Source: Candidatus Latescibacterota bacterium (GTDB lineage: Bacteria > Latescibacterota > UBA2968 > GCA-2709665). From it: DNA of 64,000 nucleotides. The DNA lies in contig OZ241917.1 of the NCBI GenBank assembly GCA_965203805.1, positions 2,336,001 through 2,400,000 of the forward strand, given 5' to 3'. Position 1 is the first letter of the stretch, and every line of letters starts with the position of its first letter. Made by a program: the position numbers and the translations under genes. The notes below the pieces were generated by a model, which was given only the letters and a program-made list of their open reading frames with translations, made no database searches and was not told the origin of the DNA. Shown here one piece after another: positions 7,778-64,000 of the stretch.

Positions 7778-8989
7778 ATGAACGAGAAGATCGAAGAGGC
7801 TCGGCAGGCCGCGCTTCAGACATTGAAGCCGCGAAAGAAAGAGCTGGAACACGGGTTGGCCCTTCACGGGGACTCCATCGTGTGTGACACGTACGGATTC
7901 GCGCCGCGGGCGGCCATCGATGGCGACGCGATGGCGGCCGCAGTGGAAGCCGGTGCGTCGGCGGCCGAATTGAACGATATGAACGAGGAAATGTCGATGA
8001 CCCGGTGCGCGACCGATCCGGTCGAGCGGGCTGAGTTTCAGGAGGCATGGCTGTCGGCAGGGGTGACGTGTATCGTGCAGAACGCGGGAGAAGAGGGGCA
8101 GGCGCCGTTACGGTTGATCAAACGTCTCGCCCGGTTTACGTACGTGGCCGACGTGATGCGGGATTTTCTGCTTCGGGCGACCACGCCCGCGGATATAGAG
8201 GCGGCCAGGGCGCAGGGGAGACAGTGTTTCTATATGAGCGGCAACGGCGTACCCCTGTCGCAGGACTGGGTGTCCGTCGAGGAGGAACTGAGATATATCC
8301 GTACTTTCTTTCAGCTCGGGATTCGCATGATGCACCTCACGTACAACCGGCGGAATATGATTGGCGACGGGTGCGCCGAGCCCGCCAATGCGGGCTTGAG
8401 CGATTTCGGCAGATCGGTCGTGGCCGAAATGAACCGGGTGGGCGTGATCGTAGACGTGGCGCACGCCGGCTGGCAGACCAGCCTCGAAGCGGCCAGGGCG
8501 TCCACGGCGCCCATGGTGGCCAGCCATTCCGGCTGCTGCGCGGTGAACGAACACATCCGGTGCAAACCGGACGACGTGATCCGGGCGATTGCGGATACGG
8601 GCGGTTACGTGGGCATCTGCTGCATTCCGGCGTTTCTGGGTCGAAGCGGAGACATACAGGCTCTGCTGGATCACGTCGATCATTTGGTTGGAACGGTGGG
8701 CGCCGACCACGTAACGATCGGGACGGATACGGCGTACGCGTCACGCGCGTCCGGCAAGGAGCGGAAAAAGGCGCCCCGACCGCTCGCGCGGCCGCGATGG
8801 GCGTATTTCTGGCCCTCTGACGCATTTGGCGCACACTGGCGGCAGGAACACATGGTGAAGAGCCTGGCGTGGACCAACTGGCCGCTCTTTACGGTGGGAA
8901 TGGTACAGCGCGGTTATTCGGACGCGGATATCCGCAAGATCCTCGGCGGCAACATGCTCCGTGTGGCGCGGGCGGCTCTGGCCTCCTGA
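7778..8989 (+). CDS. Membrane dipeptidase (peptidase M19)
   Basis: LTYNRRN, GLSDFGR, EMNRVGVIVDVAH, ASHS, GTD motifs. Confidence 0.85.
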   Translation: MNEKIEEARQAALQTLKPRKKELEHGLALHGDSIVCDTYGFAPRAAIDGDAMAAAVEAGASAAELNDMNEEMSMTRCATDPVERAEFQEAWLSAGVTCIVQNAGEEGQAPLRLIKRLARFTYVADVMRDFLLRATTPADIEAARAQGRQCFYMSGNGVPLSQDWVSVEEELRYIRTFFQLGIRMMHLTYNRRNMIGDGCAEPANAGLSDFGRSVVAEMNRVGVIVDVAHAGWQTSLEAARASTAPMVASHSGCCAVNEHIRCKPDDVIRAIADTGGYVGICCIPAFLGRSGDIQALLDHVDHLVGTVGADHVTIGTDTAYASRASGKERKKAPRPLARPRWAYFWPSDAFGAHWRQEHMVKSLAWTNWPLFTVGMVQRGYSDADIRKILGGNMLRVARAALAS

Positions 8990-14415: not shown

Positions 14416-16244
14416 GCCTTGTCGCCCGCCTCCTTCCGGTGGAACTCCTGCAGAGAACGAATCCGGACCGCGCCGTTTTTCTTCAGGGACTCGATGCCGG
14501 ACACCGCGGCCGAGGCGCCCGCCAGCGTGGTCGTGTACGGAATGCCGTATTGCAGCGTTGCCTGGCGAATCCTGTGATCGTCCGCCTGCGCGGCTTCCCC
14601 CGCCGGGGTGTTGACCATCAGGACGATCGACCGGTTTTTAATGGCGTCCAGAATATTGGGGCGGCCCTGCTGAATCTTGAGGATGGGTTCGGCGAGGATA
14701 TCGTGGGCCTTGAGCCGGGCGTGGGTTCCGCGGGTGGCGACAATCCGGAACCCCAGTTCCGCCAGCCGCCGGGCAACGGGTATCACGGCATCCTTGTCCC
14801 GGTCGTTGACCGAGATAAAAACCGCGCCCGAGGTGGGCAGCCGTACCCCGGCGCCGAACTGCGCCTTGTGGAAGCTCAGGCCGAAGTCCGTGTCGATGCC
14901 CATGACTTCGCCGGTGGACTTCATTTCGGGCCCCAGCAGCGTATCCACGCCGGGGAACTTGGCGAACGGCAGAACGGCTTCCTTTACAGCAATGTGATCG
15001 AAGACGACTTCGCCTGTCAGCCCCTGTTCCCTGAGGGATCGGCCGACCATGGCCCGCGCGGCCACTTTCGCCAGCGGAATACCGATCGTCTTCGAGACAA
15101 ACGGTACCGTGCGGCTTGCCCGCGGATTGACCTCGAGAATGTAGACCTGGTTGTCCTGAAGGGCGAACTGCACGTTCATCAACCCCACGACGTTCAACGC
15201 GCCGGCCAGCGCGTGGGTGTGGGAACGGAGTTCATCGAGGTGTTCCGCGGAGATGTCGTAGGGCGGCAGCACGCAGGCGCTGTCGCCCGAATGCACGCCC
15301 GCGCTCTCGATATGCTGCATGATGCCGCCGATCACAACCGTCGTATCGTCCGCGACGGCGTCGACGTCGAACTCATGCGCGTCTTCGAGGAAACGGTCGA
15401 TGAGGATGGGATGTTCGGGGGAGGCCTGGATTGCCTTTTCCATGTAGCTGAGAAGCGCATTCCGCTCGTAGACGATGACCATGGCGCGCCCGCCGAGGAC
15501 GTACGAGGGCCGTACAAGCACGGGATAGCCGATATCGTCGGCCACGGCGACGGCTTCGTCCACGCTGGTGGCGGTTCCGTTGTCGGGCTGGGTGATGCCG
15601 AGTTGCCTGATGAGTGCGCCGAATCGCTTGCGGTCTTCGGCCAGATCGATGCTGTCCGGAGACGTCCCGATGATGTTGACGCCGCCGCATTCCAGGTCGC
15701 GTGCGAGATTCAGCGGGGTTTGCCCGCCGAGCTGCACGATCACGCCGTCGGGCTGTTCCAGGTGTGCGATATTGAGCACGTCTTCGGCCGTGAGCGGCTC
15801 GAAATAGAGTTTGTCGGAGGTGTCGTAATCGGTGCTTACGGTTTCGGGGTTCGAATTGACCATAATGGTCTCATAGCCGTCTTCCTTGAGCGCAAAAGCC
15901 GCGTGCACGCAGCAGTAATCGAACTCGATGCCCTGCCCGATGCGATTCGGGCCGCCGCCCAGGATCATGACTTTGGGACGATCCGATCGCGTGGCCTCGT
16001 TTTCGTCTTCATACGTGGAATAGTGATACGGCGTATATGCCTCGAACTCGGCGGCGCACGTATCGATGGTCTTGTAGACCGCGTGGATATTCAGTTCTTT
16101 TCGGAGCGCCCTGACGGTCCATTCACTGGTCGTCCACAGGTGGGCGAGTTGTCGGTCGCTGAACCCGTATCGCTTTGCCTTGATCAGATCGGCTCGGCCG
16201 ACACGGGTCCGCAGATCGTCGAGGGTTCGTTGTTTCCGGTGCAT
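14412..16244 (-). CDS. carB: Carbamoyl-phosphate synthase large subunit, C-terminal part
   Basis: AKRYGFSD, DTCAAEF, GPNRIGQGIEFDY, GPEMKSTGE, MGS domain. Confidence 0.92.
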   Translation of the reverse strand: MHRKQRTLDDLRTRVGRADLIKAKRYGFSDRQLAHLWTTSEWTVRALRKELNIHAVYKTIDTCAAEFEAYTPYHYSTYEDENEATRSDRPKVMILGGGPNRIGQGIEFDYCCVHAAFALKEDGYETIMVNSNPETVSTDYDTSDKLYFEPLTAEDVLNIAHLEQPDGVIVQLGGQTPLNLARDLECGGVNIIGTSPDSIDLAEDRKRFGALIRQLGITQPDNGTATSVDEAVAVADDIGYPVLVRPSYVLGGRAMVIVYERNALLSYMEKAIQASPEHPILIDRFLEDAHEFDVDAVADDTTVVIGGIMQHIESAGVHSGDSACVLPPYDISAEHLDELRSHTHALAGALNVVGLMNVQFALQDNQVYILEVNPRASRTVPFVSKTIGIPLAKVAARAMVGRSLREQGLTGEVVFDHIAVKEAVLPFAKFPGVDTLLGPEMKSTGEVMGIDTDFGLSFHKAQFGAGVRLPTSGAVFISVNDRDKDAVIPVARRLAELGFRIVATRGTHARLKAHDILAEPILKIQQGRPNILDAIKNRSIVLMVNTPAGEAAQADDHRIRQATLQYGIPYTTTLAGASAAVSGIESLKKNGAVRIRSLQEFHRKEAGDKA

Positions 16245-16276
16245 AACGGCTGCCGAACTCGTTCGGGCGCCTGGAA

Positions 16277-17725
16277 TTACGCGACGAGGCCGGCGAGTTC
16301 CTTTTCGTATTCGGTGATCTGACGCAGGTTCTCAATGAACCACGGGTCGATTCCAGTCAGTTCGTAGAGCTCGGCCAGGGGCCAGCCCGCTTCCAGCGCG
16401 GCTTTGAGATAGAAGATTCTCTGGGAATTGGGCACTCTCAGCCGGTGCTCGACCACGGCGCGGTCCAGGGCCGGAACGGCCAGATCCTTGCCGTCGGCCC
16501 CGAATCCCCCGCGGCCGATTTCCAGGGACCGCAATCCCTTCTGAAACGCCTCTTTGAACGTCCGCCCGATGGCCATCGTTTCACCGACGGATTTCATCTG
16601 AGTACCGAGGAGGTCTTCGGTCTGCGGAAACTTTTCGAAGGTCCAGCGCGGGATCTTGACCACGCAGTAGTCTATTGTCGGCTCGAAAGAGGCGGGGGTT
16701 TCCCGCGTGATGTCGTTCCGGATTTCGTCCAGTGTGTATCCCACGGCGAGTTTGGCCGCGATCTTCGCAATTGGAAACCCGGTGGCTTTCGAAGCCAATG
16801 CGGAACTCCGGGAGACCCTTGGGTTCATCTCGATGATGACGATACGTCCGTCCCGCGGATTCAGTGCGAACTGAATATTGGACCCGCCCGTCTCCACACC
16901 GATTTCCCGAATAACGGCGATAGATGCGTCGCGCATGGCCTGGTACTCTTTGTCGGTCAGGGTCTGCGCGGGCGCCACCGTAATGGAATCGCCGGTATGA
17001 ATTCCCATGGGGTCGAAATTCTCGATCGAACAGATAATAACCACGTTGTCTTTCAGATCGCGCATGACTTCCAGTTCGAACTCTTTCCACCCGATGATGG
17101 ATTCTTCGACCAGGATTTCGGTGGTGGGCGAAAGCTCCAGTCCGCGAACCGCGAGGTGTTCGTATTCTTCCGCATTATAGGCCGTGCCGCCGCCGGTGCC
17201 TCCGAGCGTGTAAGAAGGACGGATGATGGCGGGATAGCCTATTTCCGCAATCACGTCGCGGGCCTCTTCCGCGCTGCGGGCAAACCTCCCCTTCGGAAAC
17301 TCGACGCCGATCCCGGCCATCGCAGCCTGGAATCGCTCCCTGTTTTCGGCCTTTTCGATGGCTTCGGCATTCGCGCCGATCATCTCTACATTGAATTTCT
17401 CCAGAATTCCCCCGTTGTAGAGATCCATGGCCACATTCAGGCCGGTCTGCCCGCCAAGCGTTGGAAGAAGCGCGTCCGGGCGCTCACGTTCGATAATGGC
17501 GGCACACACCTCCGGCGCAACCGGTTCCACGTAGGTCCGATCCGCCATTTCCGGATCGGTCATGATCGTGGCCGGATTGCTGTTCAACAGAACGACCGTG
17601 TATCCCTCTTCCTTGAGGGCTTTGCACGCCTGAGCGCCGGAATAGTCGAACTCACACGCCTGGCCGATGACGATCGGCCCGGAACCGATGAGCATGATTT
17701 TCCGGATGTCGTTACGCCTGGGCAT
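16277..17725 (-). CDS. carB: Carbamoyl-phosphate synthase large subunit, N-terminal part
   Basis: [52 protein letters not shown]. Confidence 0.93.
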
Positions 17726-17817
17726 ATCCGCATCCTGCCCTTAAAAAAAATACCTGCGGCCGTCCTTGAAAACGGAGGATGATCGCAGGTAACGTGGGAC
17801 CGGTTGGTTGTACGCGT

Positions 17818-18345
17818 CTAGACATTTTGCAACAGAACCAGGTAGATAAGCAGAAGGATCAGGAGAAGCGTAACGGCAAAGCAGGTTTTCAGGAAGAGAT
17901 CCTTCGCCCTGTTCCGGGGCGGGTTTTCGCCGATGGGCAGCGGCGAGGCGGCGGGTTCAGGCATCGACCCCGAAAACCGCTCCTGTTCGATGAGCTGCTC
18001 CAGTTTCGGATCGCACTCCCGGATGACACGGAGGATCAGGCGCTTGTTGCGGGCCGCACGTTCGGCGTAACGCCCCCGGTGCGACGTGCGGGTTTCCGAA
18101 TTGGGGATGAGAAGGTCCGTGTCTTCCCGGGATCCCGAAGCGTCTTCGACCAGGCTGAGCGCCCGCGCTCTGGCCAGTTGTTCCGTGAGTCTGCGGGTCT
18201 GTTTCCTGTCGTGGACGTTCTCCCGGATCACCCTGCCGCAGATGCTCACGAAGCGCTCCATATCCGCCTTGATTTCGCCTTCCGTGAGACCGGCGAGATA
18301 GGATTCTTCGATCATTTCGTCGATGCTGTCGCGAATGTCCGGCAT
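17818..18345 (-). CDS. Hypothetical protein with C-terminal transmembrane helix
   Basis: In operon orientation; hydrophobic C-terminal FAVTLLLILLLIYLVLL. Confidence 0.6.
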   Translation of the reverse strand: MPDIRDSIDEMIEESYLAGLTEGEIKADMERFVSICGRVIRENVHDRKQTRRLTEQLARARALSLVEDASGSREDTDLLIPNSETRTSHRGRYAERAARNKRLILRVIRECDPKLEQLIEQERFSGSMPEPAASPLPIGENPPRNRAKDLFLKTCFAVTLLLILLLIYLVLLQNV

Positions 18346-18356
18346 TCGTCTGATTC

Positions 18357-19964
18357 TCAGTTTGGCGTGTGAAATCGTATGTACCGGTTCCGGTCTTCGC
18401 CTGTTTCGATCACACGGCGTGCGCCAGGAAGCGCCGAAGCGATGTCGCCCGCGATCAGCCCGGCCTCGCCAGCGCGTTCCGCGCACAGGTCTCCGGCCAA
18501 TCCATGGAGGTAGACGCCCAGGCACCCCGCCGTTTCGGGGTCCGCGCCCTGCGCGATCAGGGCTGCGAGTATGCCGGTGAGCACGTCTCCGGAGCCGCCC
18601 GATGCCATGCCGGCGTTGCCGCTGGGATTGACGTACGTGCGGCCGTTTGGCACGGCGACGACGGTTGGGGCGCCTTTAAGGATTACAGTGACGCCGGCCG
18701 CTCGAGCCAGCGTCTGCGCCGAACCGATGGGATCGGAACGCGTGGCGTCGTTGCCAAGACCGGTGAGTCGGGTGAATTCACCCGGGTGTGGCGTGACGAC
18801 GGTTGGCGCAGCCCGATTTTCGAGAATTTCCGGTGCTCCGGCGAGCGCGTTTATGCCGTCGGCGTCCAGGACGAGCGGCGCCTGGATATCCTCAATGATC
18901 CGACGCACGAGTTGCACGGTTTCGCGATGGGTGCCAAGTCCCGGCCCGAGCGCGACACAGTCGGCCTCCGTAACCAGTCTCCGGATGTCACCGCGGGCAC
19001 GAAGGGCGAGGCAACGGCGATTTCGAACCTCGGGAAGCGGATGGGTCATCGCTTCCGTGAGCTTGACCTCGAGAATATCGTTCAGGCTCTCGGGAACGCC
19101 CACCCGAACCAGACCGGCGCCGCTCCTGAGCGCCCCCTGCGCCGAAAGCGCCGCCGCACCTGTGAGACCCGAAGAACCCGCCAGAATGACGACGCGGCCG
19201 CAGTCCCCCTTGTGGGCGTCGGGCCGTCTTCGGGGCAGCAGGGGCGCGCCCCCGTACGCGGCGATGAGCCGGACGTTGACGCTGTCCGCGTTAATGGCCG
19301 CCTTCGGCAGACCGATATCCGCGCAATGAAGGATTCCGCAGAGGGACCGGCCCGGATAGCGGAACTGTCCGATCTTGGGCAATCCGAAAGTCACCGTGCG
19401 GGTTGCCGCGGCGCAGGGCCCGTCGACACGTCCGGTGTCGGCGTCCAGGCCGGACGGGACGTCGACGGCCAGGACCCGACAGGCTGCATCCCGCAGCGTT
19501 TCGATTGCGCCCGCAACGACCCCGCGGGGGCCGCCGCGAATTCCCGTTCCGAGCAGGGCGTCTACGGCCGCGGACGCGCCGGAAAGCGCGGACCGGATTC
19601 TTTCAAGGTCGTTAGATCCGAGAATTTCGTCGAATTCAAGGCCGTTTTTCCGGGCCCTGTCCAGGTGGTGGCGCGCGTCGCCCCCAACCTGGTCTTCAGC
19701 CGCCAGCAGAAAAGCGGAAACCGACGCACCGGCGGAAGCGGCGAGATCCGCGATAACGAACCCGTCCCCGCCGTTGTTGCCCTTCCCGCAGAGGACAACG
19801 ATCTTTTTTCCCGGAAAACCGCCGACGAGGTCGTTCAGCACCCGGGCGCCGCCACGACCCGCAGAAGCCATCAATTCGATGCCGGTAACCCCGCGCTCGA
19901 CGGCTCCGCGGTCGATGCGAGCCATCTGCGCGCCGGTTACGAGCCTGGCATGGACCTGGGGCAC
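18357..19964 (-). CDS. nnr: Bifunctional NAD(P)H-hydrate epimerase/dehydratase
   Basis: GKGNNGGDG, DALLGTG, DVPSG, HKGDCG, GPGLG, TPHPGEF, GGSGDVLTG. Confidence 0.92.
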   Translation of the reverse strand: MPQVHARLVTGAQMARIDRGAVERGVTGIELMASAGRGGARVLNDLVGGFPGKKIVVLCGKGNNGGDGFVIADLAASAGASVSAFLLAAEDQVGGDARHHLDRARKNGLEFDEILGSNDLERIRSALSGASAAVDALLGTGIRGGPRGVVAGAIETLRDAACRVLAVDVPSGLDADTGRVDGPCAAATRTVTFGLPKIGQFRYPGRSLCGILHCADIGLPKAAINADSVNVRLIAAYGGAPLLPRRRPDAHKGDCGRVVILAGSSGLTGAAALSAQGALRSGAGLVRVGVPESLNDILEVKLTEAMTHPLPEVRNRRCLALRARGDIRRLVTEADCVALGPGLGTHRETVQLVRRIIEDIQAPLVLDADGINALAGAPEILENRAAPTVVTPHPGEFTRLTGLGNDATRSDPIGSAQTLARAAGVTVILKGAPTVVAVPNGRTYVNPSGNAGMASGGSGDVLTGILAALIAQGADPETAGCLGVYLHGLAGDLCAERAGEAGLIAGDIASALPGARRVIETGEDRNRYIRFHTPN

Positions 19965-20263
19965 CGGGTCTCCTCGAAGGGGCTCATTATGGCAGGAAAA
20001 ATCAATGAAAACGGACGTTGATTCCATGCCAATTCCGAACGCCTCAAACTTGCCTAATAATACAGGAATCGGAAGGGCGGCGCAACCCCAAACTTGCATC
20101 GCTGAAGCCGGCAAAGACGAACGATCCGAGGCGCCGAAAACCGCGACGTCCGGACGGTGGGGCGCGACCCGTTTCGAGAGACAAAGCGCTTGACAGACAG
20201 CACCCGATTTCTGTTATTTTTCCCGAGGATCGCCGCAGATTTCAGGCCCGCCTCCATAGCGAC

Positions 20264-20352
20264 GGTGGGGTGACGGAGTGGTCGAACGTGGCGGTCTTGA
20301 AAACCGTTGATCCTTACCGGATCCGTGGGTTCGAATCCCACCCCCACCGCCA
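20264..20352 (+). tRNA. tRNA-Ser(TGA)
   Basis: GGTGGGG/CCCCACC acceptor stem, CT-TGA-AA anticodon loop, long variable arm, TTCGAAT loop, G-CCA end. Confidence 0.95.
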
Positions 20353-20492
20353 GAAACCGGCCTGGTTCCGGTGTCGCCCATCGGCGAAGTACCGCGGTAA
20401 ACGGCGCGTTGCAGTTGACGCCGCGCTGCCGGTTTTTCCTTGATTTTGCAGTCGTGTTTTGGTAGTATTAGACTCCCTTGAATCTGTGATCC

Positions 20493-20585
<93 letters not shown>

Positions 20586-20664
20586 AAAAACAAGCGCACG
20601 CCGGTCCCCGGCCTCCCAACTGTCAGCAGTCAGCCGACAGCCAATACGATACGTTAGATTCTTA

Positions 20665-22104
20665 ATGTCTGAATCGGTATTGCGATTTGCGCCGTCACCC
20701 ACGGGCGGGTTTCACGTGGGCAACGCCCGGACGGCGCTGTTCAATTATCTCTACATCCGGAAATACGGCGGCCGGCTGCATCTGCGTATTGAAGACACGG
20801 ATCGCGACCGGTCCACCGACGCCGCGCTGAAGACCATCCTGGAAGGACTGGACTGGCTGGGGATTGCTTTCCACGGCCGGCCTGCTTTTCAGTCGCGCAA
20901 CGCCGTTGCGCACGGCACAGCGGTGGATCGGCTCCTCGAAAACGGTCACGCGTATTACGCCTACGAGACCCCGGAAGAGGTCCGCGCCATGCAGCAGCGG
21001 GCGCAGTCGGAGGGCAGGCGGGTCCGATACAACCGGGACGTCACACCCGAACAGTGTGCGGCCTTCGAGGCCGAGGGGCGGCCAAAAACGGTGCGCTTCA
21101 AGGTTCCTGAAGGAGAAACGGTCTGGCGGGATCCCATCAGGGGCGTGCAGCGATGGGACAACCGGGAGGTTGAAGACTTCATCGTCCTGCGGGCGGACGG
21201 GTCCCCCATCTACCATCTCGCCGTGGTTGTCGACGATCATGACCTGGGCGTGACGCTGGTGATCCGTGGCGCCGAACACCTGTCCAATACGCCGAAGCAG
21301 GCGATGCTCTTTCAGGCGCTGGGTTGGACTGCACCGGCATATGCGCATACCACGTTGCTCATGGGGCCGGACGGGAGGAAACTGAGCAAACGCCTGGGCG
21401 CAACGACCGTCACGGAATACCGGCAGCAGGGCATCCTGCCCGAAGCGTTGTTCAACTTTCTGGCGCTTCAGGGCTGGTCGCCGGGTGACGACCGGGAGGT
21501 ATTCACCCGGGAGGAACTGGTTGAAGCGTTCTCCGTTGAGGGCCTGCTCAGCAAGAACGCGGTGTTCGACGAGCGGAAGCTCGTCTGGCTGAACGGCGAA
21601 CACCTGCGGTTGAGACCGGTCCCCGAACTCCTGCAGGCGGCGACACGCCTGTGGCTCGATGCGGAATGGATAACGGCGGAAGACGCGGAGACCCGGAGAG
21701 AGAGCCTGCTGAAGGCCGTGAAACTGATGCAGCCTCGCATCCGGACCGTACGGGATTTCCTGAACTACGAGTACTTTTTCAACGATCCGGAAACGTACGA
21801 GAACAGGGCCCGAAAGAAACACTGGAAGGCGGACAGTCCCTCCCGTCTGGAAATGCTGATCGAGCGGCTGGAAGCGCTGGACGACTTCGGCGAGCGGGAA
21901 ATCGAAGGCGCCACGCGCACGCTGTCCGGGCAACTGGGTATCTCCACCGGAAAGCTGATCCACCCCACCCGCCTCGCGCTCAGCGGCACCAACGTCGGTC
22001 CGGGACTGTTCGAAATGATGGCTGTTCTGGGGCAGGAAACCTGCATCCGACGGATGAAGACGGGCCTGGAAAGACTGGGACGAAAGGAGACCGTTCCGCA
22101 ATAG
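20665..22104 (+). CDS. gltX: Glutamate--tRNA ligase
   Basis: RFAPSPTG.FHVGNARTAL, RIEDTD, KLSKR. Confidence 0.95.
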   Translation: MSESVLRFAPSPTGGFHVGNARTALFNYLYIRKYGGRLHLRIEDTDRDRSTDAALKTILEGLDWLGIAFHGRPAFQSRNAVAHGTAVDRLLENGHAYYAYETPEEVRAMQQRAQSEGRRVRYNRDVTPEQCAAFEAEGRPKTVRFKVPEGETVWRDPIRGVQRWDNREVEDFIVLRADGSPIYHLAVVVDDHDLGVTLVIRGAEHLSNTPKQAMLFQALGWTAPAYAHTTLLMGPDGRKLSKRLGATTVTEYRQQGILPEALFNFLALQGWSPGDDREVFTREELVEAFSVEGLLSKNAVFDERKLVWLNGEHLRLRPVPELLQAATRLWLDAEWITAEDAETRRESLLKAVKLMQPRIRTVRDFLNYEYFFNDPETYENRARKKHWKADSPSRLEMLIERLEALDDFGEREIEGATRTLSGQLGISTGKLIHPTRLALSGTNVGPGLFEMMAVLGQETCIRRMKTGLERLGRKETVPQ

Positions 22105-54565: not shown

Positions 54566-54727
54566 TCGGACGCGATCTCACGCCGGAGATCCCCCGGCGT
54601 CAGCACTGGAAGCCCGCGCTTTCCTTTTTGTTTCTGACTCTTTTCGCCATTCCGATTCAATCACTGTTCTAATGAACGATTCTCGCCGGGCTGCCGCCTT
54701 TGATGGCGAGATTGTGTGCCAGTTAAT

Positions 54728-56670: not shown

Positions 56671-56757
56671 TGACAAGGCGGTACCGTCCGGGAAAATGGG
56701 ACTGGGCATGCCGCCGTTCGGCGATTCCAATCCCTTGCGGCTGAAGGCGACTTTCAT
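56630..56757 (-). pseudogene. 5' fragment of an Nmad3-like (nucleotide modification associated domain 3) gene, copy 1
   Basis: MKVAFSRKGLESPNGGMPSPIFPDGTALSLPIP resembles the recalled SRKGFDS..GG.PSPI.PDG...SLPIP N-terminus; similarity ends after about 40 aa. Confidence 0.6.
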
Positions 56758-56878
56758 GGATTCCCTGCCTCCCTGGATTCATTTCGGTTGCAAAAACCCA
56801 CGGTTTGATTGGAAGTCAAATTAGGGGTAAACGTCAGGGGCTTGTAGAGCGTGAATAGGGGGAAGTTTATTCCCAAGC

Positions 56879-56960: not shown

Positions 56961-57599
56961 TTAAGTCACAGCCGACACGTTACCGTATGATTTTTGAGGC
57001 GCTACAACAATCGGTTCTTCTGTCTCAATAACTTCTGTATCATCCTCGACTGTATCAGTTGTAAGTTCATCGATAAAATCGACGATTTTTGCCATGTCTT
57101 TCTGATTTGGCGTTTGTCCCTGAAGATTATTGAAACTGTATAGGAAAAGTCGCAGGATATTATATAGGTAATCCTTATAGAAGGTATTCACTCCTGTATG
57201 AATAGCCTTATCTCCCTGTACCAGATCAGCTAGCTTATTAAGGTAGTCGCGAATTTCAAACACACGTTGCTTAATGGCATGTGTTGCCACAGTTTCTGTT
57301 GAATCTGTTTTGTCGGTATCCAGGATAATCGTAACGTTCATGCCCAGGGCACTTGCGTGTTTGAAAAGAAAAGGTACGCTTATTCGATGGTCAGTGCCAT
57401 CCTCCAATGCCGCAATTTCCTTTTTTGACATACCCATCTTCTTCGCCAATTGTCTTTGGGTCATGTCCTTAGAACACCGGAGCGCACATAGTGCGCTTAT
57501 GACGATTCGATCCGCTAAACGTCGCTCTAACCGGCGTACAGAAGTAGCGGAGAGATTGTCCTGTGCCATTTCTAACACCGAATTATACGGAGCGGCCAT
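56961..57599 (-). CDS. XRE-family HTH protein, probable antitoxin with C-terminal extension
   Basis: LRCSKDMTQRQLAKKMGMSKKEIAALEDG; overlaps the upstream toxin-like gene. Confidence 0.8.
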   Translation of the reverse strand: MAAPYNSVLEMAQDNLSATSVRRLERRLADRIVISALCALRCSKDMTQRQLAKKMGMSKKEIAALEDGTDHRISVPFLFKHASALGMNVTIILDTDKTDSTETVATHAIKQRVFEIRDYLNKLADLVQGDKAIHTGVNTFYKDYLYNILRLFLYSFNNLQGQTPNQKDMAKIVDFIDELTTDTVEDDTEVIETEEPIVVAPQKSYGNVSAVT

Positions 57600-57957
57600 T
57601 CGGTTTCTCCATTTCTAGTTTATGAATATAATCATGTCCCCAAAGGATATCGTGTTTTTGGGACTTTTTAAACCCAATGGCGATCAAATGAATCATAGAA
57701 GTCTCTAATTCCAAATAAAAGTATAATCGCGCTTCCGGCAATTTAAACGGCGCACCTCGTTGATCTACCGCGTAGAGTCCGTGACCCTCATTACGTACCT
57801 TTCCAAGCCGTACGATATTTTGAGGTCTATCAGAAATCTGTAAGGTCTCTTGCACGGTCGCTAGATTCTCAAGAAGTGCCTCCAAAGTGGCGCCATGTTT
57901 CTTACCGAATCTCTTCAATTGCCGCTGAAATTTATCCGAATGAAGAAACTCCCACAT
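57583..57957 (-). CDS. RelE/HigB-like toxin
   Basis: 124 aa; KFQRQLKRF, GLYAV, ARLYFY, IHLIAIG.K.SQ..DI; toxin-before-HTH order. Confidence 0.7.
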   Translation of the reverse strand: MWEFLHSDKFQRQLKRFGKKHGATLEALLENLATVQETLQISDRPQNIVRLGKVRNEGHGLYAVDQRGAPFKLPEARLYFYLELETSMIHLIAIGFKKSQKHDILWGHDYIHKLEMEKPNGRSV

Positions 57958-58033: not shown

Positions 58034-58203
58034 GTCCAAATTACGACATTGTTGGACTAATGTTCCGACAATTTAGAATATAACCAGTTTGCCATCTAAA
58101 TACAACATCACGATGTATCCTCTCCAAAGGTCCCCGTCCCGTCTCCGGTTATTCTTGTAACACGCCTCCGCCAGATACAGTTCTATCCACTCATTACTAT
58201 ATC

Positions 58204-58302
58204 GAATCCAGTCGGAAGCCGGCATCCGCAGGCACGAACAGACCTGCCCGTCCATCATCCGTTTTTCTGACTGACCACTGACACTGATCACCGACCACTG
58301 CT
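58204..58302. repeat. 99-bp duplicate of the CRISPR array flank (paralogue of 62962-63060)
   Basis: Ungapped manual alignment gives 83/99 identity; both copies abut a degenerate repeat. Confidence 0.9.
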
Positions 58303-58350
58303 GCTTCACTCCTTGTCCTGATGGAAGATTCCCAGCGTGCCGATCAAGCC

Positions 58351-58527
58351 TCAGTCAGTATCCTGATCGGCGAAACGGCGGTCCATCTCAGCCCAGTGAG
58401 CGAGCTGCTCGGGGGTGGGGACGGGCATACCGGCCTTGCGGTAGTCTTCCGGCGAGTAGGGCGTCCCGTCCGGATGCCAGCACTGGAAAGCGGCGGGCTG
58501 CTGGCGATTTCGGATATCTTTCGGCAT
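58351..58527 (-). CDS. Repeat-associated small protein, paralogue 1 (58 aa; absent from the ORF track)
   Basis: MPKDIRNRQQPAAFQCWHPDGTPYSPEDYRKAGMPVPTPEQLAHWAEMDRRFADQDTD; ATG 5 nt after the repeat. Confidence 0.78.
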   Translation of the reverse strand: MPKDIRNRQQPAAFQCWHPDGTPYSPEDYRKAGMPVPTPEQLAHWAEMDRRFADQDTD

Positions 58528-58655
58528 AAGCAGTTCTAATCCTTTCTCTGATGGAAGATTCTCGCCGGGAATGACGGCAGAATCCAGCAGCGGGGAGGGA
58601 GATCCTTCCAGGTGACCAAATTCTATGAGGTGGAGCTGATGTATCCGACACGGGA

Positions 58656-58841
58656 TTAACCGAAGTAACGGGCCTTGATCTCCGCGATCGTCCGATCCAT
58701 CCGGTCCCGGTGAGCCCGGTGCTCAGGCGTCGGGACGGGCATCCCCGCCTTGCGATAGTCCGCATCGGAATAGGGGGTTCCATCCGGATGCCAGACTTCA
58801 AAGATCTTCGGACCTTCTCGATTTTGGAAATCCTGTGGCAT
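58656..58841 (-). CDS. Repeat-associated small protein, paralogue 2 (61 aa)
   Basis: MPQDFQNREGPKIFEVWHPDGTPYSDADYRKAGMPVPTPEHRAHRDRMDR...; ATG 5 nt after the repeat. Confidence 0.78.
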   Translation of the reverse strand: MPQDFQNREGPKIFEVWHPDGTPYSDADYRKAGMPVPTPEHRAHRDRMDRTIAEIKARYFG

Positions 58842-58910
58842 AAGCAGTTTCAATCCTTTCTGTGATGGAAGTTTCTCACCGCGTATTTTCTCGTGGAGCT
58901 TGATTGAGGA

Positions 58911-59084
58911 CTAGCGGTCTTCGCTGGCGCGTTCATGGTCCTGTTCAGCCCACAAGGCCATTTGCTCAGGGATGGGGACGGGGAGGCCGATACGGCGGTA
59001 GTCTTCCGGGGTGGCCGGTGTGCCGTATGGACGCCAGACGCGCCACGGGCCGCCGGTTTGTTTGTTGTGCTTTGGTGTGGTCAT
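58911..59084 (-). CDS. Repeat-associated small protein, paralogue 3 (57 aa)
   Basis: MTTPKHNKQTGGPWRVWRPYGTPATPEDYRRIGLPVPIPEQMALWAEQD...; ATG 4 nt after the repeat. Confidence 0.75.
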   Translation of the reverse strand: MTTPKHNKQTGGPWRVWRPYGTPATPEDYRRIGLPVPIPEQMALWAEQDHERASEDR

Positions 59085-59149
59085 ATCGGTTTCAGTCCTT
59101 GTTTTGATGGAAGATTCTCGCCGGGAATTCACTCGGCATTGCTACGTCT

Positions 59150-59485
59150 TCAGTTGGAAGCCCTGGGTACGGGCGTGGCGACGGGCTTGTCCGTCCGGTA
59201 GTACTGGCTTCGACGTCCTACGATATGGGCCCTGCCCTGTTCGACGGCATCAAGGTCGAAATTGCCCGATCCATGGTCTCGGATAAACGACCGGGCCAGG
59301 ATGCGGCCGCGCGGTGACAATTTCAGGTGCCGGAACAACTCGTCGACCGTCGCGTCGCTGGCAAATTCGCCCCGCATCGTGTTAACGGCTACCGCCTGGA
59401 GCCGGGACAGGTACGCGACTTCGTCCATGTGTTTACGGACGCCGTATTTGCCCTTCCTCGGCTTATCTATGACGAATCTGGGCAT
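59150..59485 (-). CDS. Hypothetical basic protein (111 aa) in the fourth inter-repeat gap
   Basis: ORF lies wholly between repeats, same strand as the paralogues; no recognised motif. Confidence 0.55.
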   Translation of the reverse strand: MPRFVIDKPRKGKYGVRKHMDEVAYLSRLQAVAVNTMRGEFASDATVDELFRHLKLSPRGRILARSFIRDHGSGNFDLDAVEQGRAHIVGRRSQYYRTDKPVATPVPRASN

Positions 59486-59723
59486 AGAGCGGACCCCAAT
59501 ATCGGGTTGCCTGTACGGCTGCGCTGCTGGTCTCTCCGGTCACACGGTCCCGGGTGTTTTCGAGGGAACGCTCGCCGCCAGGAAGCGAGCTCTCGTCAAA
59601 CCCCAGCTTATGATTGTTGTTTCAATCGTTGTACTGATGGAAGATTCTCGCCGGGCGTGGCGATACGGGCGGCTTTGGACATCAACCGGCGAAGCGAATG
59701 GGCTGTGAACCCGAGGCCGGTTG

Positions 59724-60326
59724 TCATGCACGGTCCCGGTACTCTCCTTCACAATACCTGCGAATTCTCAACCCAAGCTCGCGCGCGTTTCGCTTGGACC
59801 AGAATCGGAAGTGCTTAACATATAGGAGTTCGCACGGGAGGTCCTTCCCCTGTAGCAACTCGGCAGCGTCCTTGCCGTGGGCAATCACCAGCCTGGGCGC
59901 GATCTGGCGCAAGAGATAGTCGAAGGAAGTCGAGATCTTGCTTCGCTCGTCCAGGTCCGATGCCTGATTAGTCGCTTTCGCGTAGACATTCGTCTCGAGG
60001 CATTTGACGGGACTGGCGCCCGAGACGACCTCCTCGATGATTCTTCGTGTGTTGCTTACTTCATTCCTTCTCTTTCTTCCGGGTTTCAGCGGGCGAGACC
60101 TTCGCTCCTCCTTGTACTTCTCGAACCACGCGCGTTTGTCGAATCCATAGCTGTCCGACCAGAAATCCCAGAAATCAACCGACATGCGGCTCGCGGGATT
60201 GATACCAACGAGGAACACATCGCAATCAAGCGGCGAACCCTCGCACACGAACGGACGCAGATCGGTCGGCCTGCCGATCAGAGATGCCAGGCCAAGGCTG
60301 AACTCGTGCAAGCTACTCGTTTCCAT
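59724..60326 (-). CDS. Uracil-DNA glycosylase superfamily-like protein
   Basis: VFLVGINPA, ETNVY, PRLVIAHGKDA, HF motifs; GAGG RBS. Confidence 0.65.
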   Translation of the reverse strand: METSSLHEFSLGLASLIGRPTDLRPFVCEGSPLDCDVFLVGINPASRMSVDFWDFWSDSYGFDKRAWFEKYKEERRSRPLKPGRKRRNEVSNTRRIIEEVVSGASPVKCLETNVYAKATNQASDLDERSKISTSFDYLLRQIAPRLVIAHGKDAAELLQGKDLPCELLYVKHFRFWSKRNARELGLRIRRYCEGEYRDRA

Positions 60327-60739
60327 TTTAGTCTTCCTCTCATTGATGTTCCAGGCCTATTCAGATTTATCCTCTCGGTTGACAGGAGTCGGCCGCCAGC
60401 CACAATCGGAATTCCGGATGTAGTGACAATAACTTAATCGTGCTTTGGCAGTCGAGAAACGCACCGGCTGTCACGCAGTGTGAATCCATACAAAAACACC
60501 GGCATAATGCCGGTCTCAGTCAATCGAAACAGTCTTGATAAACCTTCGGAAGGTAACGGAAAGTTCAATGCCCGTCGCGACTTTGGGCGGTGGATTACTG
60601 GAGAACAGATCTGGAACTCACGAGGTCGCCACCATGAACAAATGGATTTGGGTCAATCACCGGAGGTTGTAATGCTGATGCTTCTCGGTTTATCTCTAAG
60701 TTGTAGACAGATCGAACCAAGGAAACAGGTGCAGTGTAT

Positions 60740-61318
60740 CTACGTTGCGCTGACGTTCGAATCTGACCCCTGCCGCAGATATTCGTATCCACGTAGATTG
60801 GCCGTTTTTTTTGCAATTTTTTCAATTATCGATATTCTCGTCGACCTGGACGATAAATTAATCCCCAGTGCCTCGCCAATTTGCCTCAGCATTGAAATGT
60901 CGTACTTTTTTCGATCGGCCAAAGTGAGCTCGATATCTGACGACGTCAACCCTTTTAATTCTTCTGCTATAACCCTTGCATCCTCGCGGCTCTGTGCAGA
61001 ATAGGCATTGCGTGCGGTCTTCTTCGTCCCCTTGTTTCGTGATGACAGACCCAGAACTGACGAAAGCACAGGATCTGACTCTGCGACGCGTACACAGTCC
61101 TTGATAGATTCGATGGTCGATGTAACGCCTTCAACGTCTTCCCCTGCAGGAAGTGACCTTAGCCTTATCTGGAAATCTCTTAGGAACTTAATCAAGACCT
61201 CCAATTCTTGGTCAAGTCGATGTTTTGTCTCCTCCGTGGGCAAGGCGTCAACCAACTCGGACAGCCTGCTGAGAAAGTTGTCCAATTTCCTTCCGGTCAA
61301 TCTTACTGAATTGCTCAT
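60740..61318 (-). CDS. Hypothetical protein coupled to ParA
   Basis: TAATG overlap with the parA stop; helical; C-terminal LRQIGEALGINLSSRSTRISIIEKI is helix-extension-helix-like. Confidence 0.7.
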   Translation of the reverse strand: MSNSVRLTGRKLDNFLSRLSELVDALPTEETKHRLDQELEVLIKFLRDFQIRLRSLPAGEDVEGVTSTIESIKDCVRVAESDPVLSSVLGLSSRNKGTKKTARNAYSAQSREDARVIAEELKGLTSSDIELTLADRKKYDISMLRQIGEALGINLSSRSTRISIIEKIAKKTANLRGYEYLRQGSDSNVSAT

Positions 61319-62259
61319 TATTGAAATCTCTCCAGAAGTTCGTCGACGACTCGGGGATACTCCTGCTTGCCCGTCGCCCGCCTGGCGTTTTCAGAGTCAT
61401 GCAACCATATGGGCAGACTGTTTTCGGCAGCTTCAGTGTATCCGATCAATTCAGTCGTGTGGGTTGAAAAGCACTTGTCCCGGCCCAACTGCGACCGAAT
61501 TCCCTCCATTGTATTCGCATGGGCATTAGCGATCATTTCACCCCCGATTCGCACACGAACGAAAAGAACTGCGCCGAACTCAGCTACACGATGACTGTCC
61601 GCAGTTTCACCGGCCAATGCACCCGCATGCGTCATACGTTCGTCGATATCCCGGACTTTGTTTGTTAAAATGCTCAATCCAATTGTAGAAAGATGATCCG
61701 GTATCGCGGTCACAATGTAGTAGTCACTCGCGATAAGCGCGTTCTGCGTCATCAAATACAAATTCGGCGGGCAATCTATCAGAACAAAATCGTAATTGTC
61801 ACGGACTTCGTTGATGGCTTTAACTAGGAATTCCCGGTCTCGCATGGCCTGTTGTGCGTTCTTCCTCAGCATTTCCATACTTGGATATGCTCCTGAGATC
61901 TGCCCTCCGCCAATGTCCTCCCCTATCAGATCAATATCGCACGGGATCAAATCCAATCGTGGGTGACGGCGCCCGTCCCTTAAACGAATTGGAGTCTCCC
62001 ACAGATATCTCTTAACGTCAATGGGTTTCCTGTCCAGAAATCTCTTATACATAGTGGCAATTGTGCCAACTCTGGATTTCCGCCTTTTCCAGTCTTCAAT
62101 GGAAGCACATAGAAACGTAAGGTTTGTCTGTGGATCGATATCGATCAGCAAGACCTTCTTCTCTCTTAGTCCGGCAAGCCAACATCCGACATGGTAGGCT
62201 GATGTCGTCTTTGCGACGCCACCTTTGTAATTGATAAACGCGAAAACCTTTGCTGCCAC
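61318..62259 (-). CDS. ParA/Soj family ATPase
   Basis: NYKGGVAKTT deviant Walker A, IDIDPQ.NLT, IDCPP; low GC. Confidence 0.9.
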   Translation of the reverse strand: MAAKVFAFINYKGGVAKTTSAYHVGCWLAGLREKKVLLIDIDPQTNLTFLCASIEDWKRRKSRVGTIATMYKRFLDRKPIDVKRYLWETPIRLRDGRRHPRLDLIPCDIDLIGEDIGGGQISGAYPSMEMLRKNAQQAMRDREFLVKAINEVRDNYDFVLIDCPPNLYLMTQNALIASDYYIVTAIPDHLSTIGLSILTNKVRDIDERMTHAGALAGETADSHRVAEFGAVLFVRVRIGGEMIANAHANTMEGIRSQLGRDKCFSTHTTELIGYTEAAENSLPIWLHDSENARRATGKQEYPRVVDELLERFQ

Positions 62260-62814
62260 TAATTATGCCCCCAAGCAGACAACCGCATATTGCGATCTTC
62301 AGCTATATTCGGAACAGAAGATCGATGCTACTGGTCGGTTCATCTTGACAGCGTGGCATGCACCCGTGAATGACTGGCAAACCTAAGGCGCACAGCGCTT
62401 TGACTGCGATTAATTACGAGCCAGGTGTCAGCAAGCCGAAAGCGTATCCGTTGGAAATCTCGTTCAATGCACGACACTCCCATACGTTTGAGTCCCGAGG
62501 ATCACTTTTAACGAACTGACCACCTCTAACCTTCAAATATATGGCATTCGATGGGCGGAAGGCAACCTCATTTCCGTTTCTGTCACTTACTCTGAACGGC
62601 AGCTGTTCCTTCAAGTGGCGAATAGTTCCCGCAACCAGACATTTGCTTCAGGGATCCCGCATGCGTCGAACACGAATTCCTGTCCGGGGCTTACCGTGTT
62701 GAGGTATACCCATGGTTTGCGGCGGTCCCAAAGTTTCCTATTGTAGTGGTGGCTTAGGATTGGACAACCGCCCGGCGGATAAAATCACGACGGCAGCCTC
62801 CATCTGCTGCGATT

Positions 62815-62916
62815 CGCCGATCGCGGCGCCGTCAACGTGAAACGGTCGCCGTCGCCGGAAAAGAGGGCTGCGCAGTTCACCGAGTTGAATTACTTGCGCC
62901 TGAAGACGATCTTCAT
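62815..62916 (-). pseudogene. Decayed Nmad3-like 5' fragment, copy 2
   Basis: ATG 62916: MKIVFRRK*FNSVN..SPLF../DGDRFTL; DNA aligns with 56713-56803 at a constant 6159-bp offset. Confidence 0.6.
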
Positions 62917-63060
62917 CGATTCTCCGCCTTTCCAGTTTCATTTCGGTTCTGATGACCCACGGAATCCAGGCGGAAGTCGGCATCCTCCGGCACGCAAATT
63001 CCCGCCCATGCATGATCCGTTTTGCTGACTGGTCACTGACACTGATCACCGACCACTGCC

Positions 63061-64000
63061 GCTGCAATCCTTGTTCTGATGGAAGATTCTCTCTGAGATG
63101 AGCAGATCGAAAAACGGCCCGGTGTGTATCACGGGTTTCAATCCTTGTTCTGATGGAAGATTCTCTCTGAGTGTTCGTCGGGCAACATCGTCCGCCCCAG
63201 ACCTTCCTGTTTCAATCCTTGTTCTGATGGAAGATTCTCTCTGAGTCTCCGTGGACGGGTTGATGTTCTGTCTTTGCACGTGTTGTTTCAATCCTTGTTC
63301 TGATGGAAGATTCTCTCTGAGTCCACGTCGGCATCCAGTTCGATACCGAGATAATGTGGTTTCAATCCTTGTTCTGATGGAAGATTCTCTCTGAGAAGTC
63401 CGCCCCAGATATAACCCCAATATACCCACGTGTTTCAATCCTTGTTCTGATGGAAGATTCTCTCTGAGACGGCGAGCCCAACTATCGCGCCGAAGAAGGT
63501 GACTCCAGTTTCAATCCTTGTTCTGATGGAAGATTCTCTCTGAGCGCTTAGAGCGTCTCTATTGCGTTCTGCGATACCGGTTTCAATCCTTGTTCTGATG
63601 GAAGATTCTCTCTGAGCGCGTAATAAAGCGCTTCACCACCGTCAAAGCCTTCCGGTTTCAATCCTTGTTCTGATGGAAGATTCTCTCTGAGAATCGGGCG
63701 GCCCGTCTTTTACGCGTACAACAACAGTTTCAATCCTTGTTCTGATGGAAGATTCTCTCTGAGACATCACATCTTCAGGATCACCGAGTGTGGCGATCTG
63801 TTTCAATCCTTGTTCTGATGGAAGATTCTCTCTGAGCCAAGCGTTGGCGCGGGCCACGCCGTCGACGGACTCCATGTTTCAATCCTTGTTCTGATGGAAG
63901 ATTCTCTCTGAGCGCAAGGGGTTCCCCGAGCACCAGGCCCTGATTTAGTTTCAATCCTTGTTCTGATGGAAGATTCTCTCTGAGTTCGAATGATACCGAT
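63061..64000 (-). CRISPR. CRISPR array: 13 repeats and 12 complete spacers (35-39 bp); continues past the window
   Basis: Repeat GTTTCAATCCTTGTTCTGATGGAAGATTCTCTCTGAG at 63061 (2 mismatches), 63135, 63209, 63285, 63359, 63432, 63508, 63580, 63655, 63727, 63800, 63876, 63948. The reverse complement ends in ATTGAAAC and the degenerate copy is at 63061, so transcription on the minus strand is inferred. Confidence 0.98.

Follow-up and report, generated by a model that had tools for sequence, protein, structure and literature searches.

A 64,000-nt stretch of the genome of Candidatus Latescibacterota bacterium (contig OZ241917.1, positions 2,336,001 to 2,400,000; hereafter the window) carries the trailer end of a type I-B CRISPR array and, beyond it, a series of degenerate copies of the array's 37-nt repeat, between which protein-coding genes take the places of spacers. 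The arrangement raises a simple question: are these degenerate copies, which we call psi-repeats, the debris of an array that happens to enclose reading frames, or have they become part of the genes that they precede? An earlier note on this DNA had described the layout and proposed a repeat-punctuated gene cassette that Cas6 could cut into single-gene messages. Here we show that the layout recurs in related genomes, always in one orientation, and that the repeat is better conserved than the protein behind it. We tentatively favor the view, which we place a little short of probable, that psi-repeats are exapted intercistronic leaders, cut by Cas6b where that enzyme is present, with translation of the small genes tied to the status of the Cas system.

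Repeats and small genes in the window

The window is part of a single-contig genome of 5.87 Mb (labelled G000 in the set of genomes from its genus). The features on which the argument turns are listed here in window coordinates.

63061..64000, minus strand: trailer end of the true type I-B array, which has 65 repeats of 37 nt and continues past the window to its leader
58303..58339, minus strand: psi-repeat 1, 29/37 identical to the array repeat; copied from the terminal repeat of the array, with a trailer copy behind it
58351..58527, minus strand: s58, small gene of 58 aa (WHPDGTP family) whose ATG comes 5 nt behind psi-repeat 2 and which stops 11 nt short of psi-repeat 1
58533..58569, minus strand: psi-repeat 2, 30/37 identical
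58656..58841, minus strand: s61, 61 aa, a paralog with 65% identity to s58; ATG 5 nt after psi-repeat 3
58847..58883, minus strand: psi-repeat 3, 30/37 identical
58911..59084, minus strand: s57, 57 aa, a paralog with 52% identity to s58; ATG 4 nt after psi-repeat 4
59089..59125, minus strand: psi-repeat 4, 32/37 identical; matched by Rfam CRISPR-DR7 at 30.4 bits, minus strand
59619..59655, minus strand: psi-repeat 5, 32/37 identical; AAGGA altered to AACGA
54654..54690, minus strand: psi-repeat 6, 28/37 identical; solitary, after an S51 peptidase gene

The gaps between psi-repeats 1 to 5 measure 193, 277, 205 and 493 bp, as against 35–39 bp for the spacers of the true array, and each holds one complete minus-strand open reading frame (ORF) with an ATG start (58, 61, 57 and 111 aa). 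Repeat places, identities (29–32/37), gaps and frames all reproduce what the earlier note had reported. Its statement that no ORF crosses a repeat is true of the four gap ORFs, but not of a 137-aa frame (58388..58801, minus strand) that overlaps a repeat, nor of longer versions of two small ORFs that start at TTG or GTG. At the position of the solitary psi-repeat 6, a related genome has a repeat together with a small gene.

The whole genome (5.87 Mb, both strands) was searched with the array repeat, allowing up to 10 substitutions. This returned 71 plus-strand matches, comprising the 65 repeats of the true array, the five psi-repeats and the sixth at 54654-54690; there were no matches on the other strand and none at any other site in the genome. 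Restriction to a single locus and a single strand excludes chance as the origin of psi-repeats. Psi-repeats 1 to 5 differ from the array repeat at 5–8 of 37 positions, and also among themselves; they show neither the near-identical repeats nor the uniform spacers of about 30–40 nt by which a canonical CRISPR array is recognized. Four of the six degenerate copies share the plus-strand end ...CTCGCCGGG, where the array repeat ends ...CTCTCTGAG; these copies form a family of their own and are not random decay products of the present array. With the Rfam model CRISPR-DR7 the true repeats score 34.5 bits; they and psi-repeat 4 match on the minus strand and fall below the gathering score of 37, and none of the remaining four psi-repeats appears at E<=1. 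Homology to the local repeat is clear.

Directly past the array, on the minus strand, lies a cas operon of type I-B-like composition (cas6b-cas8b-cas7-cas5-cas3-cas1-cas2-cas4, the cas8b-like gene encoding 575 aa and cas6b lying at L009:8102-8776, minus strand), and the array is accordingly read on the minus strand; that the main locus includes a Cas6, as the earlier note had supposed, is borne out by the cas6b gene of this operon. In minus-strand sense the array repeat is CTCAGAGAGAATCTTCCATCAGAACAAGGATTGAAAC and ends in ATTGAAAC. The 5' handle of type I-B CRISPR RNA (crRNA) is 8 nt long, and the ATTGAAAC repeat end is used for it. Taken together, the strand of the operon, the ATTGAAAC end and the minus-strand CRISPR-DR7 match show that psi-repeats and small ORFs share the sense of the crRNA. 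The same genome contains a second CRISPR-Cas region (G000:C1:2885390-2901411), with two Cas3-HD matches and a Cas1 match in a 661-aa frame.

In this RNA sense the ATG of s58, s61 and s57 stands 4–5 nt past the ATTGAAAC end of the preceding repeat, and the stops fall 11–86 nt ahead of the next. The family of these three genes is confined to one locus in the window genome, and we regard s58, s61 and s57 as tandem duplicates of one unit of repeat plus gene. The notion of a repeat-punctuated gene cassette thus stands insofar as there is a real series of genes in crRNA sense; it needs amending in that three of the four genes are paralogs of one unit, and that the fourth ORF begins 133 nt from its repeat.

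Are the small ORFs genes at all? Relatives of the small protein in a large protein database number 16, and W17, G21, P23, D28, Y29, V36, P37, E40 and A43 are invariant in their alignment; an exhaustive profile search yielded 49 representatives at E<=1e-3, of which about 30 are small proteins and the long ones are mostly repeat proteins. The family, about 58 aa in length, is marked by the motif WH[PA]DGTPF..DY..AG..VPT.EQL..WA. Homologs with invariant residues, together with a third codon position that is the least conserved of the three (see below), identify the small ORFs as real genes of a new conserved protein family. Searches of Pfam, PADLOC and PHROGs gave no match and the ESM Atlas no usable one; an AlphaFold2 model (pLDDT 78.3) has a strand bridge and two helices, with no Foldseek match at E<=0.001 in PDB or BFVD. 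The proteins are mildly acidic (pI 5.1–6.8). Two longer metagenomic proteins (P0038 and P0039) consist of the small domain followed by a weak match to a helix-turn-helix (HTH) domain, below the Pfam cut-offs. In genome G001 (L022:4992-6257) the frame of a 421-aa PDC-S11-like defense candidate continues into a C-terminal copy of the small-protein domain, either by gene fusion or by read-through from one gene into the next. Several ORFs, metagenomic proteins among them, extend into the next repeat, so that translated repeat sequence forms their C-terminus (...FHQNKD*, where the TGA comes from GATTGAAAC; ...ENLPSEQGLK; ...ESSIRTR...).

Recurrence and constraint in related genomes

Eleven loci came from a scan in which each species was represented by one genome, and the addition of further loci from the genus brought the collection to 36 distinct copies of the family, which are kin and not independent events; one more locus (L029), from a metagenome scan, entered only the pooled unit scan. 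In 10 of the 11 loci a homolog stands directly behind a repeat ending ...GGATTGAAAC, and every psi-repeat in these loci and the window lies on the gene strand, with none on the opposite one. Twenty-five of the 36 copies have a repeat of I-B type with an in-frame start 2–8 nt behind it (4 nt in 14, 5 nt in seven, 3 nt in two, and 2 nt and 8 nt in one each). Two more have the repeat and a broken frame, two lie 5 and 13 nt behind type I-C repeats that share the ...GGATTGAAAC end, and seven have no repeat within about 140 nt. In one of the I-C cases the repeat is the terminal one of a 27-repeat I-C array: the ATG follows after 5 nt and the stop lies inside the next degenerate I-C repeat. A similar order is found in G062, where a broken family member begins 5 nt past the last repeat of a 75-repeat array and has a psi-repeat behind it.

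Of the 15 genomes in the window's genus, 13 carry the small family (12 of 14 if the window genome is set aside), as does one of two genomes from a sister genus. No copy was found in the rest of the 168 genomes searched in the phylum. Recurrence of the repeat-ORF layout in relatives, which the earlier note had put up for checking, is therefore observed, and its observation is not only right but more general than the single locus shows.

Some further arrangements were met in the course of this survey. Two sister genomes share a conserved, degenerate three-repeat mini-array with gaps of spacer size and a period of 72-73 nt (L015:6203-6384 and L017:9166-9347), which in L015 stands directly behind the small gene; it is a candidate for a classical regulatory (CreR/crlRNA-like) mini-array. 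In G003 (L024, sense 16354-16664) and G053 (L065, sense 6051-6121 and 8912-8982) degenerate I-C and I-B repeats alternate before small genes, 17–24 nt apart, which suggests stacked remnants of two array types at the locus. The same island is found in L014 and L019, sequences titled 'Gemmatimonadota'; these labels disagree with the placement of G053, L014 being the 32,557-bp contig G053:C12 from the window's own genus, and we do not claim transfer across phyla.

We compared 17 non-redundant units in 136 pairs that share ancestry, the regions being compared within the same pairs. Within the repeat, mean identity reaches 0.82 in the 3' 25 nt and 0.60 in the 5' 12 nt. Codon positions 1, 2 and 3 in the protein core average 0.66, 0.66 and 0.46, and the 40 nt that precede the repeat 0.28. 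The repeat's 3' part is thus better kept than any codon position, and psi-repeats are therefore elements under selection and not neutral debris. The conserved 25 nt, CTTCCATCAGAACAAGGATTGAAAC, are exactly the part that is shared by the true arrays of G000, G054 and G062, whose 5' 12 nt differ. Within it, the block CTTCCATCA (repeat positions 13–21) is strongly conserved, and G29 and A30 of the AAGGA motif are invariant in the 17 units.

It could still be argued that part of the array was duplicated a single time and then decayed, its ORFs being fortuitous and without function. The repeats are indeed degenerate and the region does carry a duplicate of the array's trailer; however, 13 of the 15 genomes in the genus show the layout, the coding sequence is less conserved than the repeat, and the ORFs belong to a conserved protein family. 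We give this explanation next to no credence.

Possible roles: leader, mobile module or recombination site

Two further features lie in or directly upstream of the series.

59150..59485, minus strand: p111, a basic protein of 111 aa (pI 10.5), starting 133 nt after psi-repeat 5
59724..60326, minus strand: UDG-superfamily-like gene of 200 aa, directly upstream in the same sense and kept in the islands of related genomes

For p111 there is no family match, and the large database holds only three close homologs. A simple consensus scan of the minus strand from 60326 to 58303 revealed no promoter-like and no terminator-like site, which fits a single transcript running from the UDG-like gene, probably its first gene, through all the cassettes. 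With no conserved sequence upstream of the units and no promoter-like site before them, it is most likely that the units are read as one polycistronic RNA from upstream, starting at the UDG-like gene or perhaps by read-through from the array.

On the reading that we favor, type I-B repeats at the trailer side of the array would have been retained as a 37-nt leader, or intercistronic element, of small genes, and less regularly of other genes of the defense island. The unit, consisting of repeat, 4–5 nt, ATG and about 58 codons, would have come to exist in several copies by tandem duplication, and recombination between repeats would have rearranged them; the array-like picture would result from these two processes. 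Where it is present, the cognate Cas6b would cut each element 8 nt from its 3' end, between G and AUUGAAAC, and so free single-gene RNAs that start with the crRNA 5' handle AUUGAAAC, 12–13 nt before the AUG. This cut would sever the only Shine-Dalgarno (SD)-like sequence, AAGGA; Cas5 and Cas7 could load on the handle; and synthesis of the small protein would come to depend, most likely inversely, on the activity of Cas6 and Cascade. A precedent for part of this scheme is RacrIF1, in which a repeat joined to other RNA is bound by Cas6 and several Cas7 subunits (PMC10651486). What speaks for it here is the crRNA sense of the units, the fixed distance to the ATG, the fact that the constrained stretch is the one common to true repeats, and the presence of a Cas6b gene at this locus.

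Several observations weigh against it, beginning with the distribution of Cas6b. A Cas6b_C match is found in three of the 15 genomes of the genus (G000, G052 and G054), as against 13 of 15 for the small gene, so that 10 of the 13 genomes with the small gene have no such match. A search with a model of the element found true arrays of this repeat in four genomes and 1–12 scattered copies in the other 11. Three genomes have an adjacent array of another type. The cas modules by genome are as follows.

Type I-B: the window genome and G054
Another type I, with a different repeat and a Cas4-Cas1 fusion: G001 and G002
Type I-C: G003
No match to the cas families searched: G004 and G005

G004 and G005 are complete chromosomes with intact units, in which Cas3-HD, Cas5 and Cas6-family searches gave no match, a negative with the Cas6 family PF01881 being weak in that this model missed even the window genome's own Cas6b; Cas1 was searched for in G004 only and not found there. 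Psi-repeats are, moreover, not better kept where Cas6b is present, the unit of G054 having 11 mismatches to the consensus, and p111 lies 133 nt from its repeat.

The structure and spacing of the element add to these difficulties. The predicted fold of the repeat (-2.2 kcal/mol) is weaker than that of 192 of 200 shuffled sequences, and a candidate 6-bp helix shows no compensatory changes; it is therefore sequence, not structure, that is conserved. The window genome has the usual anti-SD and uses SD sequences, with a peak of AGGA 7 nt before the starts (seen in 136 of 3749 long ORFs). The AGGA of the units lies 11–12 nt before the ATG, a spacing seen in only 34 (11 nt) and 24 (12 nt) ORFs, that is, in the tail of the genome's distribution. 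By this measure the AAGGA of the repeat is a poor SD at best, and its loss by cutting may matter little.

These observations bring forward an alternative in which Cas6 has no part: psi-repeats would be relics of old arrays turned 5' untranslated or intercistronic regions and kept for reasons outside Cas, such as translation initiation, RNA stability or the binding of some other RNA- or DNA-binding factor. Intact, conserved units where neither Cas6b nor another of the cas families looked for was found are what such a leader predicts, and the invariant G29 and A30 of AAGGA are in keeping with it. A factor is also at hand in the WYL-HTH regulator at the head of the island, kept at the upstream flank in all six regions compared. 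Furthermore, in G004 (L027:17181-18430) and in L019:2092-3300 the defense gene zacA (ZacA/DUF6361; PADLOC PDLC03828, E 1.6e-122) has its ATG 1 nt past the end of a psi-repeat, and the 3' end of this psi-repeat is mutated to ...GAGAGGACAC-ATG, an ordinary SD at ordinary spacing. This explanation, however, leaves the conserved block CTTCCATCA far upstream of any SD, does not account for a conserved part that is exactly the one common to the true repeats of three arrays, must accept a suboptimal spacing of AAGGA, and meets the same juxtaposition behind type I-C repeats. We consider it possible, if unlikely. What it has in its favor does bear on the preferred reading: intact units in genomes without cas matches mean that part of the constraint on the element is independent of Cas6b, and that processing by Cas6 is not the whole reason for its conservation. 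For the window genome itself, with its own cas6b beside the units, processing by Cas6 is a plausible mechanism.

A more specific version can be conceived, in which genes in spacer slots form a messenger gated by Cas: Cas6b (or Cas5d at the I-C variants) would process the RNA in the manner of a pre-crRNA, Cas5 and Cas7 gathered on its 5' handle would mask the start codon, and the protein would be made only when Cas is missing or inhibited by a phage. The protein would then possibly be an abortive, backup-defense or anti-defense factor. We think this version unlikely.

What is known of the small protein outside the genus bears on its possible role. The only extra-genus relative whose surroundings were examined is a distant one, a 74-aa protein of a Binatia genome (L020:5965-6189, genome G173), with no CRISPR repeat nearby. 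It is encoded on the opposite strand within the head-and-packaging module of a prophage, in a moron-like position among small and large terminase, portal, a MuF-like protein (with a weak ADP-ribosyltransferase match), scaffold and major head protein, and the family occurs in one of 251 genomes of that class. This prophage setting and patchy occurrence make a mobile, accessory role, in defense or anti-defense, plausible. The units might then be captured modules akin to those of racr and acr, in which a solitary repeat, serving as RNA decoy for Cas6 and Cas7, travels with a small anti-defense protein of mobile origin and entered the array by way of its repeat; the protein would be an anti-CRISPR or other anti-defense factor, and this could be why cas modules are often lost or exchanged here. 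Besides the prophage member, its rarity, and cas modules that differ or are missing among sister genomes, the small, mildly acidic protein without known domain or fold agrees with such an origin; and solitary repeat units next to anti-CRISPR (acr) genes are known from mobile genetic elements, integration into arrays having been proposed (PMC10651486). Genes for anti-CRISPR proteins are usually borne on mobile elements and accompanied by an HTH gene (aca); circumstantial evidence of this kind is confined to the prophage relative and the weak HTH-like matches of the two longer metagenomic proteins. Yet two protein-alignment scans and a repeat-pattern scan found neither the small protein nor the repeat on IMG/VR contigs, and tblastn against GenBank phages and PLSDB plasmids gave no match. 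The units are, moreover, found on the chromosome, in conserved synteny across 13 of the 15 genomes in a single genus, and they are clustered, not solitary, with no promoter-like site upstream. On this evidence we judge a captured module to be quite unlikely.

A different kind of explanation starts from the repeat as a place of recombination. In the sense of transcription the locus begins with the WYL-HTH regulator and the UDG-like gene, continues with a variable cas operon and array, and ends in a defense-type island with psi-repeats. Here psi-repeats are scattered, always co-oriented with the genes, and bound single genes as well as multi-gene blocks; among the genes concerned are UDG-like, EEP nuclease, SRAP, methyltransferase, ParA-like, ZacA/DUF6361 and PDC-S11. 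The island also includes Nmad3. Two duplications connect the series with the array. In D6, 58204-58331 resembles 62962-63089 (85%), so that psi-repeat 1 and the 100 nt downstream of it correspond to the terminal repeat and trailer of the array; in D7, 56712-56803 resembles 62871-62962 (73%), the D6 copy continuing into the 5' end of an Nmad3 gene fragment. Copies of terminal repeat plus trailer, with 58332-62961 between them, thereby bracket a 4.76-kb block with ParA, a 192-aa gene, the UDG-like gene and the cassettes, a pattern such as recombination or integration by way of the repeat and trailer might leave behind. In G062 (L062) a psi-repeat and the same 20 nt are duplicated and bracket the 75-repeat array. 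Sponge-metagenome contigs from related strains, aligned at 85% likeness and with short sides, offer weak evidence for joints that lie in repeats: one (59103->59634) is consistent with absence of the p111 unit in a related strain, a second (58562->58333) with one extra unit, and a third (58312->63146) with the array repeat being joined to the trailer copy.

It is tempting to see in all this a cassette platform, in which repeats act as attC-like recombination sites, homologous or, more boldly, served by Cas1-Cas2, that move genes at the array's trailer. The single genes and gene blocks bounded by psi-repeats, the bracketed 4.76-kb block and its counterpart in G062, the first two contig joints and the ORFs that take their stop codon from the next repeat would all find a place in it. 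Dispersed repeats of any kind will, however, recombine to such patterns without selection; the fixed 4–5 nt to the ATG goes unexplained; the element has no inverted-repeat structure; and the joints come from the distant, short-sided alignments just described. Where a true array is interrupted, in G054, the cause is ordinary. As the basis of the locus we hold a cassette platform to be improbable. In G054:C5 (L060/L061) a true array with identical repeats is split in three by inserts at 14031-19487 and 19749-21383 (sense, in the reversed region), which carry transposase-like ORFs (an IS21-like pair and others, named by the look of their translations); these gene blocks had been entertained as cassettes and were rejected as ordinary insertion sequences. 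Between the trailer copy and the Nmad3 fragment of the window is inserted a toxin-antitoxin-like pair (56961-57957, minus strand), a 124-aa gene overlapping a 212-aa HTH_3 (XRE-type) gene, behind a promoter-like site at 58033-58005 (TTGACA-17-TATAAT, 12/12).

Known systems and the meaning of the locus

How does the locus compare with what is known? It belongs with ectopic elements derived from CRISPR repeats, among which are the crlRNAs and mini-arrays, whose ectopic repeats make guide-like RNAs (PMC10120712). The window resembles CreTA, CreR and crlRNA systems in having degenerate copies of the local repeat outside the array at a type I locus, kept among relatives, and, on the preferred reading, in a link of Cas proteins to the control of other genes. 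In CreTA and CreR the degenerate repeats reportedly give guide-like RNAs (CreA, CreR), CreT being a small RNA. Characteristic of these systems are repeats that flank a spacer-sized guide, the seed of which matches a promoter next to a protospacer-adjacent motif (PAM), whereas here the "spacer" is filled by a protein gene of 57–64 codons that begins 4–5 nt after the repeat. A gapped scan of 58150-59700 found only the five repeats above the shuffle maximum (27), with no partner repeat at spacer distance, and the 36 nt after each of the six repeats, compared with 2385000-2416000, gave only self matches and matches to the trailer duplicate, and otherwise chance-level 13–19-mers. With neither a partner repeat nor a seed target in the CRISPR-cas locus, a CreA-like guide role was rejected.

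Racr elements are solitary repeat units of viruses and plasmids, non-coding and placed just downstream of their own promoter, and RacrIF1 binds Cas6f and 8–9 Cas7f (PMC10651486). Likeness to these lies in a repeat mimic followed by RNA that is not a spacer, and in the adjoining small proteins of unknown fold; the units described here, by contrast, sit on the chromosome in series, have no predicted promoter and run directly into a start codon. Translational repression of mRNAs by Cas6f has reportedly been achieved with artificial constructs (PMC13478208).

Csy4 sites serve as engineered insulators between cistrons. Such designs place a Cas6 site between cistrons or just before a start codon to cut or repress an mRNA, and the layout here has the look of such a design; no natural counterpart of engineered mRNA processing by Cas6 or Csy4 was found in the literature searched. 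Integron cassettes, which may carry defense genes as cargo (10.1101/2024.07.02.601686), are comparable as promoterless, co-oriented and mostly small genes with a recurring, recombination-prone element; this element is here a CRISPR repeat without attC-like inverted repeats or hairpin. The literature searched, with the supplementary tables of PMC10120712 and PMC10651486 outside its scope, describes no protein genes in spacer positions and no repeats abutting start codons, and the survey of repeat-like elements mentions neither start codon, Shine-Dalgarno, small protein nor translation (PMC10120712). The earlier note had known of no described system with such a layout; within the same literature we found none either.

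What sets the locus apart is thus the partner of the repeat. The RNAs made by known ectopic repeats are guide-like or decoys (CreA, CreR, crlRNA, Racr). In the present case a conserved protein gene has its start codon at a fixed 4–5 nt from the repeat; copies of the repeat follow one another in series, and they are more strongly constrained than the protein. The new small protein family with the WHPDGTP motif, one member of which lies in a prophage, is a candidate for anti-defense or defense activity. If Cas6 and Cascade do act on the leaders, this would be the first natural case in which CRISPR RNA processing controls the translation of ordinary mRNA, and a new wiring of neighboring defense genes to the state of CRISPR-Cas. 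Were the small protein in fact gated by Cas, the locus would parallel CreTA, with a protein-coding gene and control after transcription, and would give insulators of the Csy4 type a precedent in nature. And if Cas6 does not act on them, the locus still demonstrates that CRISPR repeats can become leaders of genes and outlive their cas genes, which matters for the way in which 'orphan' and degenerate repeats are read in genome annotation.

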